Source: Escherichia coli (GTDB lineage Bacteria; Pseudomonadota; Gammaproteobacteria; Enterobacterales; Enterobacteriaceae). Taken from it: a DNA stretch of 64,000 nt. The position numbers were made by a program. Positions 49,901-55,900 of this stretch are shown one piece after another. The stretch lies in NCBI RefSeq assembly GCF_017348835.2, contig NZ_CP071375.1; one strand, written 5' to 3'. The number at the start of each line of letters is the position of its first letter. Position 1 is the stretch's first letter.

Positions 49901-52900
49901 AGAACTTCAAACGCGTTGAAAATAAAAACAAAAACCCGCCGAAGCGGGTTAAATGCGGGTGCGTTGAGAATGCCTGACACATCAGAGGTGGCGAGGGATT
50001 TCTCCCCCGCCGGGTCTCTTACTCCTCAGATTCGTAAGCTGTGAAGACAGCGACCTCCGTCTGGCCGGTTCGGATTCGTACCTCGCAGAGGTCTTTCCTC
50101 GTTACCAGTGCCGTCACTATGACGGTTAAACAGATGACGATCAGGGCGATTAACATCGCCTTTTGCTGCTTCATAGCCTGCTTCTCCTTGCCTTTCGGCA
50201 CGTAAGAGGCTAACCTACGTGTGTAGAGCATAGATATGGCCTCAGATTAATGTTAAGCGTCTTGCCGGACGCGTAATGTTAACTGGGGCTTTTCTCTATC
50301 TGCCTTTGGTGTTGATGCCCGAGGCAGATAGCCTCAAGCACCCGCAGCAATTCTACTTAACTACCGTTACCTCGCCAATATGAAATCAATCAGAAAGGTG
50401 ATCCATAAGAACAACAGCAAGACAATAAATTGCCATTACAGCAGCAATAGCCAGCGCACATTTGAGAACCAGCACCACAACCTCCTGTATTGGACGTACA
50501 CCAGTCCTGATAAATATGAGGCTGTCTCGTCAGTGATTCAATACAACTACTGGGTATAGTTTCTATGATTTTGTTCTGTGGAAATGGAAAACAGCAACCA
50601 GTCACCACCAGCACTTCTTTAAACATGCCAAGTCACACGCAAGCCAACATTATAGTTCCCTTTGAGCGAGCAGATGAAGCTAGCAAAAATATTGATCACT
50701 TAGGATGCATTACTAACGTTGCTATGTGTTAACGAACAGGGAGTGGGTCATCAGCATAAATATTTATGCAGTAGGTTTCTTTTAGGACTAGATTAATCAA
50801 AAACATTTAGATAAAATTATAAAATCAAGAAATTGGTGGCAATTAATCTTTAATTGTGCCAGCTGAATTTCGTTATTATAGAAGATTAGCTTTTTTTTGA
50901 GTGTTTGGAGAGTAAAATGTTAGAACCACCAAAGAGTTATAATGAAATGTTGCCTATGCTCCATAAGGCGACTTTTATTACTACATTTATATTTTACCTA
51001 TCATTAGTCATTTATGGCTACATGCCATTGGTTGGCATTAATGCCAAGTATATCCCCCCCGTTAAAGACTACGAGGAATTTATTAAATGGATATTAACCT
51101 TTGGCATATTACCAATTGCATCTTCAGTTTTTTGGTCAGTAATTAGTGGAGCTTTAGATCTACATAATAATGTAGCAAAAATTATTGGAATAAGGAAGAT
51201 GTGGGATAGTCATTTAATTATTAAACCATTAGCAAAAATTGCAGGCGTTACGAGAAAATTAACTACTGATGAATCTCACAAGGTAATGAGTAAACTGTAT
51301 TACCCAGAAGTTAAAGAGTTAAAAGACAAACATTACGTTGAACTTTTCTGGAACAAAGTTTATTACTTTTGGGTTTTCTTTGAACATACAGTAATCGCAT
51401 TTGTTACTATTTTAATAATAAGTATCGCCAAATTAACAAATATATTCTCTGTTACTGGCTCTTTAATTAATCTTTGGTTGTGGATTATTTCTCTTGTCGC
51501 ATTTGACTTCCTTATTTTCATAGCATCAGTTAAACCAAGAACAGAAAGCCAAGTAAGACAAATACCTGATAGCAAAATAAAAGAATTCTTTAACAATAAC
51601 AATATTTTTTAAACGAGGTTGATTTTGAATTACAAAATAAATGGAATAAACATACGTTCAGAAAATGCAGCGAAACCGCACACTATGCCATCTAACTATC
51701 TCTGTAAACAGATTGAAAGCACTAATAAAAATGGCAATGCCCTTGATTTTGGATGTGGAAAACTTAGATATTCAGAACAATTAGTAAATAAATTTGAAAC
51801 TGTGACATTTTTAGATTCCAGAAGACAACTAGAAAGAGTGCAAATTATCAGAGGTGTACAAACCACGATTCCAGATTACGTGATAAATAACTATAAGAAT
51901 GCTAATATTGTTTCTTATGAAAATATAGATAAAATAACAAATCATTATGATTTCATACTTTGCGCAAACGTGCTTTCCGCAATTCCATGTGAATCCACAA
52001 TTCACAAAGTCCTCAGTGCGATTAGAGAATTATTAAAGAGTGATGGTGAAGCACTGATTGTCAATCAATACAAAAGTTCTTATTTCAAGAGGTACGAGAG
52101 CGGTATTAAACATTTGCATGGGTATATATACCAAAACTCTCGCAATGCTTTCTACTATGGTTTATTAGATGTGGATACTGTAAGTAAAATATGCTCAGAT
52201 AATAATTTAGAAATAATAAAATCATGGAGCAAAGCAGGTAGTTCATATGTGGTTGTTGGTAAACATATACATATTTAGTTTATTTCAACAAATTATTAGA
52301 AAGAGTGATTTGCTTGTTAATTATTAGCTCGGCAGTGCCGGATCAACATGACCCTGCCACTTAGGCCATTGCCGGTTTACCTACTTTTGTAAGGTTCAGC
52401 ATGAAGTTTTTATATACTCTTCCTAATATCAATAGTGATGCTCGCTTATGTTAGCTGCTTCTTGTACATAGTAGCCTTCTCCGACAGTACTGCAATGAGC
52501 GGAGAGTAAAAGTCGATAAACAATAAGGAGGTTCACAATAAATATTTCTCGGTGAAACTTTCAAAGCATTCTCTGTTTTGCTAAATCGACAATTATAAAT
52601 CAACAACATTTAGTGTTATATCAATATTATTTAGCCTTGCAATCTCTGATGAATCACTTGCTATTTTAGCTTTTAATTTATCAATATTAATCATATCTTC
52701 ATGGCTTATATAAACCATATCACCTTGGTTAACTTTAGATTTGTTCACTATGGCTTGAATAACAGACAAATCATCCATTACACCTCTCATAAATTTCACC
52801 ATGCTTTGATCTTTGAAGTCAGATATCGATTTTGAACGTTGCTTACGTTGAATTGTTCCTTTTGTAATTACTTCATTAATTTCTTTTAAACCAGTGAGCA

Positions 52901-55900
52901 TATCAGACAGACTGCCTTCGCAACTCATCCGATGTTTTATTGCATTGCGATTAATAATATTGAGTATAATTTCGAGTGAATCTTTATCACTCCATGGATG
53001 TAATGATGTATAATCATGATGGCGTCGAATGGCGTCAATCATATCCTGGACCATATCTTCATCTGCTTTATCGCAAAGTTCATTCACGAAATAGCTGGGG
53101 TCGATTATTTTACAATAACTTGGAGTTAGGTATCTTGAGGCTTTACAAAAACCAAAAATATATAAAGTAGAGTATTTATCTTTCAGACTCTCTCCTATTT
53201 CATTTATTTTCTCAAAAGATTCGATAGTTTTTTTAATTTTTGCTGGACTTGCATTCGTAGTAACTTGAACTGCTATCATGTTTTTATTATCAGCTAAATC
53301 AATGGCGGGAAAATTAACTTTAATCTGATTCATGTTTACCAGTTCACCCATTTTCAGCGCGCGAAACATAAAGATGGTCAATGACTCAATTATTCTTTCC
53401 ATGTCATGAAAGCCTGCCTGTTTGCGTTGCGCGATATAAAGCTGGAGTAGTGCAATATCACTCTGTAAGTTTCTAATAAGTGGATCAATCATAGCTAATA
53501 ATCCTTTTCAATGAAGCTGGAGGTGTGTTTAACTATTAGTTAAATTTCTATTTTTATAGAAACAAGCTTTACAACTTCATCAAAGTTTCTCAAATCCTAA
53601 TCCACTTTGCAAATCCACTAACCATGCTGAATGCTTTCTGTTGTTAAACATATCCGCTGCTGGCACCAAGCAGACAAACACACTAACTCTACCCTACTCC
53701 ACAAAAGAGCCAATCAATATCTGAACTAATAAACTTTAATCTCATCACTTCAATAAATATCGAGCATTTCCCTGATAGAATGCTAGTATGCGCTGCATAA
53801 CTTCACTCTTCCGGCACTCGCGACAGATTATGTTCTGACGCCTGTCGTAGCGACGTATTTCTCCGTCAGGTAATGACCAGATAAGGTCCGGATCAACCGC
53901 AGATGGTTCCTTCAGCTTTGCCCTTGAGAGCTTTTTACGGGCATTTTGCCAGTCCTTACGCGCCTGTTCAGACGGGAATAACCCGTAACCAGAGTTGTAT
54001 ACATCGCCGCTGGCAACCAGCTCTCTTGCGAGAACGCTCATCAGATATCTTGTCGCACCTGTCTTGACTTCCAGTTGCCGTAACGTCTCACGCCCACTCC
54101 GGCGTACGAGTTCAACAACCTGCCCTTTAATTTTTTCCCGCTCTTCTTGTGTAAAAACTTTTGCCACAAGCCCTCCTGAAAATTACCTCATGACCAGAAA
54201 TTAACACTTACCCCCTGAAGCCCGGCGGAATTTCGGTATCCGGCTCAGAAATATGATTCACACAACGCTGTACAGACGAACGCCCCAGGCGGATAACCAG
54301 TTCATCCCATTTTTCGCGAAGCTTTGACGGACTCATGATATTTTTTACCCAGAATGGATCCCGCTGCACCCGACCAAACATTTCACAAATTTGTCTGTGA
54401 GTTCTGCCATCCAGCATCCGCATTGTGCGCACGTCGTTGGCCCATGCGGTCCAGTTGGGTTCTTTCGGTCGCGAAATCTCGCCATCATCGCTGGCGGCCT
54501 GCTCGTAAAGACTCACGATTCGCCCCCAGATCCACTGCGCACACGCCAAATCTTCCTGGCTGCCCCACTGGCGTTTTTTCGCACTGAACACAACCGCGTC
54601 AGGGTGTCGGGTTAAAAAATCCTGTTCAACCGTCTGCGGGTCCGGTTGCGAAGCTTCCGGACGAGAAGTCTTTTTATTCTCTGTAGTAATCTCTGTTGTA
54701 TTCTCTGTAAGATCATCAGGCCATTTTGACCCGATGACATTGAGTCGTTTTGAACCAATGGAGCGTTTCATTTTGACCTCTTCCATCGTGTCATTTTGAC
54801 CTGATGGAGCGGCGCATTTTAAACCGATGGATTCGCTCAATTTGCCACCATCTAAAAGCTCGCTCCCGTAGTTGATCGTGTAGAAATTGGTCATATCGCG
54901 CTTTGATTTATTGAGCTTTTCACAACGCAAAAGCCCCAGCGTTTTCAGACTTGCAAACGCGCGCTTTAACGTTGACTCTGACCAGAATGGGAACTGTTCC
55001 AGCCATTGTTCCGTTGTGTTATAAATCCAGCGAACACCATCACATTCCATGCCGGAGTTGGTATCTCTCAACCAGTAGTGCAGTTGTTGCAAAACAATGG
55101 CTTCGTTTAAGCCAATTTTCATTGCCAGCTGCGTGTTTATAACCAGTGGGCGTTCAGCAAAAAGAAGACTCATAATTCCATCCAGCTTTTTGTTGGTATT
55201 GCTGTCGATACGCAAGCTTGAAAGCAATTGCTTTTTCTATAAGTTCGTCAGTTTCACGATCTACAACGGCAGGATCTGCAAAAAGCAGTCCGGATTCCAC
55301 CACATCGCCATATTCTTTATTTAACCCGGCGATCATGTACGTAATACTTTTTCCATCACTGATCTCACGATACAACCTGAAATCACTAATCCGGATAGCC
55401 TCCATAATCGCAGGCACTAGCGCCGTGAACTTTTCACGCTTATCCCTGGTGTCGATAGCCTTCCAGCGTTCGAATATCTTCACTCGATTAACGCCAAGCG
55501 CTCGCTGATCAACCGCGCCACCTTCATCTGTGACACGCTGAACATCGATGTTCGGGCGCTCTTTCAAAGCCCAGAATGCTTCAGTGATTAATATCGTCGC
55601 CTGCTCCTGTGTCATTCCTGGTCGACATATCCAGGCATCCAGAGCCTCACGAGCCTGTTCAGGAGTGATTTTCATTGTTCAACCGCCCCGCCCGCTTCGT
55701 CTTACGATATTCATCATAAACTTTGGGATCATACTGAAGCTCCCCGCCAGATGCCTCCTGTAGACGCATCGCGCGACCTTCGGGAACTAAATCCCCTTTC
55801 CAGCTATAAAGCGAAGCCAAACGAATACCTGCTGCTTGTGCAAGTTTTGTTTTTGAACCGAAATACAAAAGAGCGTCAGTTTTAAGCATTTAAAACACCT

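Follow-up and report, generated by a model that had tools for sequence, protein, structure and literature searches.

The window analysed here, a stretch of 64,000 nucleotides from Escherichia coli (contig NZ_CP071375.1), contains a lambdoid prophage integrated at tRNA-Ser beside mtfA. A hypervariable slot of this prophage, situated between the hokD toxin gene and a DUF977 family gene, is filled with accessory cargo in the form of a block of three genes, designated g1, g2 and g3. The first two encode homologues of YmfE and YmfD from the e14 prophage of E. coli K-12, i.e. a predicted membrane protein and a methyltransferase dependent on S-adenosylmethionine (SAM), and the third encodes a protein starting with a predicted nuclease domain of the SMEK family. 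The block may be considered as two modules, the g1-g2 pair (module A) and g3 (module B), which are at present transferred together and which would both protect the lysogen from phages or mobile DNA; a probability of about 0.5 is assigned to this reading.

Cargo of the hokD–DUF977 slot

Comparison with sister prophages demonstrated conserved flanks and differing cargo, which substantiates the swapped accessory slot suspected in the original prediction, a reading of the same DNA made from the sequence alone. The DUF977 gene is the last of the replication block (dicC, ydaT-like gene, replication protein gene, DUF977 gene). In sister prophages with flanks of 87–93% identity, homology is lost at 50355–50679 on the left and at 53651–53766 on the right, and the cargo in between is a RelA/SpoT protein, AIPR, an ABC-three-component system, or a beta-family gene together with sce7726. 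Wider matches spanning the slot carry further annotated cargo, namely AbiH, a KwaB-like protein, DUF4209, DUF5677, RelE/ParE pairs, and QueH with a methyltransferase. Many of the genes found there in place of the block are known, or suspected, to act in abortive infection or defence. As originally proposed, the Qin prophage of K-12 has relE-relB directly after hokD; the position is the same as that of the block, but the proteins are unrelated, relBE being a type II toxin-antitoxin pair.

The block stands out by its base composition. Positions 50640–53740 have a G+C content of 32.7%, compared with a mean of 49.0% (standard deviation 6.4%) for the 3.1-kb stretches of the window; this is the lowest-G+C stretch of that length in the window, the next lowest outside approximately 47–57 kb having 38.1%. 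Both the AT-rich block and the positions of the three open reading frames, with g3 convergent to the other two, were thus correctly described beforehand, and RefSeq annotates the same three coding sequences in E. coli C7, where the DNA is identical. The features of the block and its flanks, with the evidence for each, are:

50917–51612, plus strand: g1, YmfE-family inner-membrane protein, 231 residues (YmfE homology and AlphaFold2 model)
51625–52278, plus strand: g2, YmfD-family class I SAM-dependent methyltransferase, 217 residues (YmfD homology, Pfam)
52593–53492, minus strand: g3, stand-alone SMEK protein, 299 residues (SMEK_N in NCBIfam and Pfam)
50751–53675, no strand: co-transferred three-gene block with its intergenic DNA (blastn against locus L019 and plasmid pK820-1)
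50733–50916, plus strand: AT-rich leader 5′ of g1, presumed to hold its own promoter (read from sequence)
52279–52592, no strand: spacer separating the convergent genes g2 and g3 (comparison of block copies)
53493–53744, minus strand: AT-rich leader 5′ of g3 up to the DUF977 stop codon, presumed to hold its own promoter (read from sequence)
50019–50343, minus strand: left flank, hokD toxin gene (50019–50174) and sok antisense RNA (50169–50343) (RefSeq; Rfam RF01794, 114 bits)
53745–54167, minus strand: right flank, DUF977 family gene (91–93% in sister prophages with other cargo)

All three genes are real, maintained and under purifying selection. The ratio of nonsynonymous to synonymous substitution rates (dN/dS) against diverged copies is 0.09–0.29 for the three genes (0.09–0.12 for g1), and over three versions of the block g1, g2 and g3 have no insertion or deletion at all, while the spacers do have them. 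Among the block copies the g1 leader is 73–81% identical and the g2-g3 spacer 69–79% identical with 16 gap columns, both below the coding DNA. A non-coding RNA in that spacer was considered and rejected, as it has no Rfam match and is conserved less than the coding DNA; no canonical terminator was found in the spacer either. Since g1 and g2 lie on the strand opposite to that of the phage early operon, they would need a promoter of their own. The consensus scan listed no strong one in the g1 leader; a ribosome-binding site, GGAG, is found 7 nucleotides ahead of the g1 ATG. The g3 leader has a G+C content of 34.5%, and its portion up to 53675 lies within the transferred block. At the block ends no flanking repeats or recombination sites were found, short repeats occurring at chance level only.

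Two modules, separable and co-transferred

Homologues of g1 and g2 are adjacent in every locus examined, comprising 13 sequence-distinct settings and 25 viral contigs, the latter being the IMG/VR loci, all 25 of which carry the pair. The lambdoid settings are the prophage of the window (L001) and a second lambdoid prophage (L019). In P2-like prophages of Enterobacter asburiae and Providencia rettgeri (L002–L007) the pair is located directly downstream of ogr, and in a P4-like or mobilisable island (L008–L010) it is accompanied by reverse transcriptase, Hcp, relaxase, beta-family and P4 cII genes. It is also present at the end of a Cronobacter prophage, in a Serratia mini-island consisting of an integrase gene, a xis-like gene, g1 and g2, in e14, and in the Citrobacter koseri IncHI2A plasmid pK820-1. 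Distant members behave in the same way. In locus L024 a distant g1 member (E 2e-19) abuts a Methyltransf_23 gene in reversed order; in L025 and L026 a g1 homologue of 26% identity precedes a g2 homologue at 32–44%; and in Neptuniibacter and Aeromonas the gene immediately preceding the methyltransferase homologue belongs to the YmfE family (E 2e-71 and 2.5e-15, respectively, with a profile hidden Markov model made from close relatives only, those two excluded). The bond between g1 and g2 is thus strict, also among distant members.

The surroundings of the pair in some of these loci deserve description. In Serratia marcescens (L021, 789–3784) an integrase gene and a small xis-like DUF8087 gene precede the YmfE/YmfD-type pair, and in an IMG/VR contig (L060, 3517–6362) an integrase gene directly precedes it. 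This layout is the same as that of e14, with int-xis and then ymfE-ymfD at the attachment (att) end, which suggests that the pair is a typical att-proximal cargo. In E. asburiae (L002, 11058–11960, minus strand) a gene for a 300-residue protein is convergent with the pair; the protein has a weak match to a TIR effector in PADLOC (2.9e-08), and its gene adjoins a CI-type repressor gene of an apparent second, degraded P2-like element. In another IMG/VR contig (L057, 2788–5229, minus strand) three convergent reading frames of 242, 269 and 173 residues face the g1-g2 relative at the place where g3 would be; they have no family match except a marginal one to DzbB (6e-4) and may be other cargo.

The original prediction recognised none of the three proteins, a statement that has to be revised, as g1 and g2 are homologues of ymfE and ymfD, and g3 falls into the curated SMEK_N family. 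At the DNA level, 283 complete E. coli genomes, K-12 derivatives included, match g1-g2 at 60–80%; in the one ranked first, ymfE-ymfD is 68.9% identical to g1-g2, the alignment covering 99% of 1362 bp. In K-12 the order is xisE-intE, lit on the opposite strand, ymfE-ymfD, and then the att site in icd. The window's pair resembles ymfE-ymfD (b1138-b1137) in both families, in the membrane-protein-first order, in the low G+C content and in being borne by a prophage; moreover, the two genes abut in K-12, as do the g1-g2 homologues in L019. Both pairs also have an abortive-infection or nuclease neighbour, ymfE-ymfD adjoining lit and g1-g2 adjoining the SMEK gene. They differ in that the nucleotide identity is 69%, in that the window's pair occupies the slot between hokD and the replication genes instead of the space between int/lit and att, and in that it is joined to g3. 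Since the names YmfE and YmfD and the SMEK_N models are already catalogued, the kinds of gene in the block are not new. Under the label of E. coli "plasmids", two 15.2-kb records have been deposited, OR902858.1 (L037) and OR902851.1, that are excised circular e14 elements; the former carries ymfE/ymfD-type genes, lit-sized and int-sized reading frames, mcrA fragments, a hin/pin-type invertase gene and an icd fragment.

Each module occurs without the other. The g1-g2 pair is found without g3 in e14, in the P2-like and P4-like elements, in Serratia, Cronobacter, Aeromonas and Neptuniibacter, and in loci L057, L058, L060 and L062; among close g1 relatives (83–86% at the amino acid level) some are accompanied by g3 and some are not. 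Conversely, g3 is found without g1-g2 in a Pseudomonas island with a SLATT gene, in Vibrio within an array of single-gene units near a Shedu SduA gene, on the C. koseri chromosome with a complete Lamassu (LmuA/C/B) on one side and a PtuA/PtuB-like (Septu-like) pair on the other, and in an integrase island of E. coli EC05. A conserved partner of g3 was looked for and rejected, because the genes downstream of it in Pseudomonas, Vibrio and Citrobacter are unlike each other and unlike g1 and g2. In Vibrio parahaemolyticus (L014 and L015) the g3 homologue stands amid short units on the same strand, spaced by spurious reading frames of about 29 residues; this run, which includes a gene for the SduA C-terminal domain, looks like a chromosomal integron cassette array.

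Nevertheless, the three genes also travel as one piece. With blastn, the block aligns continuously from 50751 to 53664 at 83% with the second E. coli lambdoid prophage (L019), and from 50751 to 53675 at 88% with plasmid pK820-1 (L036), the left end being identical in both comparisons. In L019 the replication genes flank the block on one side and Q on the other, and its orientation with respect to the phage operon is inverted. What the original prediction called a three-gene cassette was right in that the genes co-travel as one block in three settings; it does not hold in that there are two modules, each of which also exists alone. Judged from these sequence comparisons, the modules are read as independent ones that would have been joined later and are now co-transferred as a 2.9-kb piece.

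The same observations bear on the possibility that g1, g2 and g3 form a single system, either resembling restriction-modification, with self marked by g2 and unmarked or marked DNA cut by the Mrr-like g3, or a sensor-effector trio in which g1 and g2 regulate g3. A block with the same end in three unrelated settings would fit such a system, as would the similar divergence of the three genes within each comparison (86–88% and 90–92%), the convergence of g3 with g2 in 20 of the 25 IMG/VR loci, and the fact that 150 of the 151 copies of this g3 type in complete E. coli genomes accompany g1-g2; in addition, a convergent methyltransferase and nuclease recall type II restriction-modification operons. 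The co-occurrence in E. coli, however, is mostly that of one near-identical block, present in about 150 of 5426 complete genomes with 145 copies at 99% identity or more, and the many loci with one module only speak against the single system. The properties of g2 point in the same direction: as originally predicted, it is not like a DNA methylase, having no DNA-methylase Pfam family, no (D/N/S)PP(Y/F/W) motif and no extra domain that could recognise a target. A type II restriction-modification pair of g2 and g3 was rejected on the same grounds, i.e. the absence of motif IV, of a DNA-methylase family and of a target-recognition domain from g2, and the separable distributions. A system of all three genes is therefore considered unlikely, and the two-module reading is preferred.

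The encoded proteins compared with described systems

The protein encoded by g1 is 60.4% identical to K-12 YmfE over 230 residues (E 4e-108). Its AlphaFold2 model is all-helical (mean predicted local distance difference test score, pLDDT, 94.3; predicted template modelling score, pTM, 0.88), and the best match of the model in AFDB50, as found by Foldseek, is YmfE itself (P75968, TM-score 0.90). The four transmembrane segments suggested in the original prediction agree with four hydrophobic segments and with the helical model. Hydropathy and the counts of lysine and arginine, which are abundant (12 residues) in the loop 80–146, predict that the N-terminus, this conserved loop and the C-terminus are all cytoplasmic. 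No match to g1 was found in Pfam, NCBIfam or PADLOC, none of 60 members of the YmfE family, which counts 217 representative clusters, has a Pfam match, and among solved structures nothing resembles the model beyond generic helical hairpins.

g2 begins 12 nucleotides past the g1 stop codon, with an alternative TTG start at 51619, and its product is 68.4% identical to K-12 YmfD over 212 residues (E 8e-113). Its assignment as a SAM-methyltransferase-like protein, made originally from the motif I ALDFGCGKL, is confirmed by matches to the class I Pfam families Methyltransf_23 (3e-08), Methyltransf_12 (4.5e-08) and TehB (2e-05). Over 37 homologues the motifs NAAKP (N-terminal), LDFGCGKLRY, FxDS, CxNVLSAIPC, VNQ..SSYF and SYYG are invariant. 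A single-sequence search gave no match to g2, and the PDB profile search gave weak and mixed ones, to PKMT2, a protein-lysine methyltransferase (0.004), TehB (0.017) and UbiG (0.04); with the nearest solved relatives acting on protein lysine, tellurite, ubiquinone and lipids, no substrate class can be assigned. The PADLOC match to mad2 (1e-4) concerns the generic Rossmann core only.

These weak relatives are the starting point for a physiological or lysogenic-conversion role of module A, in which g1 would recruit g2 for methylation of a lipid, a quinone, an envelope precursor or a toxic small molecule; a detoxification similar to that by TehB would alter the cell surface or the stress tolerance. 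The nearest, if weak, relatives of g2 are indeed methyltransferases of small molecules and lipids (TehB, UbiG, the C-terminal domain of OvoA, PmtA), and an obligatory membrane-protein partner fits a membrane-bound substrate. The TehB and UbiG matches, however, are far under the curated cutoffs, and no envelope-modification family (Gtr, acyltransferase, glycosyltransferase) is matched; specifically, cargo modifying O-antigen or lipopolysaccharide of the gtrABC or oac kind was not seen, as Pfam and NCBIfam gave no GtrA-like, glycosyltransferase or acyltransferase match in g1, g2 or g3. Moreover, the pair is patchy and nearly always on prophages, satellites, islands and plasmids, beside lit, reverse transcriptase, beta-family and TIR-like genes, and this distribution is the pattern of a conflict gene rather than of a metabolic one. 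A physiological role thus seems doubtful.

Still less likely is a toxin-antitoxin or addiction pair stabilising the mobile element, with g1 as the toxin and g2 as the antitoxin or the reverse. The operon is tight, with the 12-nucleotide gap in the window and abutting or overlapping genes in other copies, the slot is shared with relBE of Qin, hokD/sok adjoins it, and small membrane proteins are common toxins. On the other hand, sizes of 231 and 217 residues and a conserved folded cytoplasmic loop are atypical of membrane toxins, and we know of no methyltransferase family acting as antitoxin or toxin. The single ymfD knockout of the Keio collection is viable and grows normally (PMC12096079), which argues against YmfD as an essential antitoxin in K-12.

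In the g3 protein, the N-terminal SMEK_N domain (PF21941/NF033859) is recognised with 105.1 bits by NCBIfam (cutoff 30) and with 2.2e-22 by Pfam. In short prokaryotic Argonaute (pAgo) partners and in the short Lamassu LmuA, the SMEK domain is described as an Mrr-like nuclease that acts as the effector (PMC10810196, PMC12663957, bioRxiv 10.1101/2023.06.08.544223). The predicted Mrr-like PD-(D/E)xK nuclease domain extends over approximately residues 1–130 of g3; in it, E36, D65, Q76, T78 and K85 do not vary among 48 homologues. A profile of these homologues matches the Mrr domain of Kordia jejudonensis Mrr-APAZ (PDB 26bh) with an E-value of 1.7e-13, the motif NFPAIDLAD...Q-x-T...K being common to the g3 family and the solved domain. 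A helical domain follows at approximately 132–299; these C-terminal residues, about 170 in number, are conserved equally with the SMEK domain (P166, D169, R182, E192 and G193 invariant; H158, H165 and H187 almost so). The C-terminal domain has no family match, Pfam being silent past residue 120, and the fold search returned generic helical bundles only. Full-length relatives of about 300 residues are spread over Proteobacteria. By sequence, g3 is predicted to join an Mrr-like (SMEK) nuclease to a helical domain that has no match and may be a sensor or regulator. No description of stand-alone SMEK proteins was found in the literature searched, nor any paper carrying the RefSeq protein accessions of g1, g2 and g3.

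Scans of the three proteins with PADLOC-DB v2.0.0, NCBIfam, PHROGs and Pfam gave no full-length match to any described defence system, and neither module corresponds to such a system. The closest comparison for g3 is with short pAgo (SMEK-APAZ) and Lamassu LmuA, since its N-terminal domain is of the same family and is likewise N-terminal in a longer protein. In contrast to short pAgo, g3 has no APAZ domain, the PADLOC match to Aga_REase-PNTD1-PNTD2 being restricted to residues 8–146 (positions 9–143 of the 463-position profile), and no Argonaute gene adjoins it, flanked as it is by g2 and the DUF977 gene, nor does one adjoin its homologues in five other contexts. In contrast to Lamassu, no LmuA model matches g3 and the slot in the window has no SMC-like LmuB or LmuC gene; the LmuA-LmuC-LmuB genes beside the C. 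koseri homologue are a separate system.

Type IV restriction enzymes (Mrr, AspBHI/MspJI class) offer a second comparison, g3 being a stand-alone Mrr-type domain on mobile elements and in defence islands that needs no cognate methyltransferase. The e14 prophage carries a stand-alone type IV enzyme, McrA, as cargo. In g3 no reader of modified bases (SRA, winged helix) is recognisable, and the domain order is reversed, with the nuclease first. AspBHI has been named as the nearest nuclease relative of the SMEK domain (bioRxiv 10.1101/2023.06.08.544223).

For module A, the system of a HAD-like hydrolase and a transmembrane protein from P4/P2 hotspots, which acts against T7 and in which the membrane partner is the presumed effector (PMC9122126), is comparable: g1-g2 also combines a small soluble enzyme with a multi-transmembrane partner, and is also borne by P4-like (L008–L010) and P2-like elements. 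The two differ in that g2 is a SAM methyltransferase and not a hydrolase, and there is neither a sequence relation nor a PADLOC match. By analogy, the enzyme-plus-membrane-protein systems of these hotspots may serve as the closest working model.

Several other features of the window were recorded. The immunity region of the prophage is Qin-like, with the DicF antisense RNA at 57423–57474 (Rfam, 76.7 bits), the dicC/dicA pair at 55659–56380 and dicB downstream. A second AT-rich stretch with 37–40% G+C (1.5-kb windows) occupies 8500–14700 at the far end of the same prophage; the collinear record of strain C7 has there the type III secretion effector genes nleF, nleH (frameshifted), nleC (partial) and nleB2, so that it would be an effector cargo locus. 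Relative to the otherwise collinear C7 prophage, about 1.45 kb is extra at 42194–43647 in the lysis/late region, and an ALIL frameshift pseudoknot at 42612–42728 (Rfam, 120 bits) suggests an IS3-family insertion. Three prophage tRNA genes are situated at 46624–46873 upstream of Q, namely Arg-TCT, Arg-TCG and one with a CAT anticodon that is Met according to ARAGORN and Ile according to RefSeq; the small RNA STnc100 is located nearby (45681–45853). The chromosomal portion contains the Hfq-binding small RNA rseX (1125–1214; Rfam, 97.7 bits), and the first 2 kb of the window are only 92% identical to strain C7.

Possible mode of action and meaning

Assuming protection by both modules, a mode of action can be proposed for each. 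In module A, the g2 methyltransferase would bind or modify g1, or another membrane or cytoplasmic target, and thereby control a membrane effector that stops the infection. The common operon, with genes 12 nucleotides apart or abutting, the strict co-inheritance and the conserved cytoplasmic face of g1 suggest a complex of the two proteins at the conserved cytoplasmic loop. The methyltransferase may be both sensor and brake, keeping the effector with its four transmembrane segments methylated or bound until infection, which could be sensed through SAM depletion by phage SAM lyases or through host shut-off; a brake release tied to SAM is purely speculative. In module B, the C-terminal domain of g3 would hold the nuclease off, or direct it, until a phage cue or modified foreign DNA appears, whereupon DNA would be cut, and g3 could be either restriction-like (type IV) or abortive. 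In its furthest form, put forward only tentatively, the proposal is that the YmfE-YmfD pair may be a hitherto unrecognised two-gene anti-phage system, long present in K-12 beside lit in e14, and that the stand-alone SMEK protein of about 300 residues may be a nuclease defence of a new type, made up of one gene and equipped with a new sensor domain.

Several points weigh against a protective role and the division into two modules. The anti-phage function is deduced from genomic context only, and neither sequence nor fold discloses the substrate of g2 or the activity of g1. In PADLOC-DB v2 no model matches g1, and what the database offers for g2 is a generic Rossmann match and for g3 an N-terminal one. 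g1 and full-length g3 are absent from 50,697 deposited phage genomes. The Neptuniibacter pair is surrounded by ordinary chromosomal genes, a non-mobile context that would suit a physiological role of module A, as would the sole ymfD phenotype found, a deletion that lowers early biofilm formation (PMC3105296). YmfD was still termed experimentally uncharacterised in 2025 (PMC12096079), and no link of ymfD or ymfE with phage defence was found in a literature search that was not conclusive. Finally, the recurrent transfer of all three genes, treated here as coincidental, leaves room for a functional link between the modules.

Without protection by either module, the block would be ordinary prophage cargo. 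Should module A be protective, the long-uncharacterised K-12 genes ymfE and ymfD would acquire a function, and a design of methyltransferase plus membrane protein, with SAM-linked sensing, would join the phage defences. If g3 is protective, the SMEK domain, which so far is known from Argonaute and Lamassu systems only, as their effector end, would work as a self-contained single-gene system with a C-terminal module of its own. The hokD–DUF977 position of Qin-like lambdoid prophages emerges here as a cargo hotspot comparable to those of P2 and P4, and as a practical place for finding more systems in E. coli genomes.

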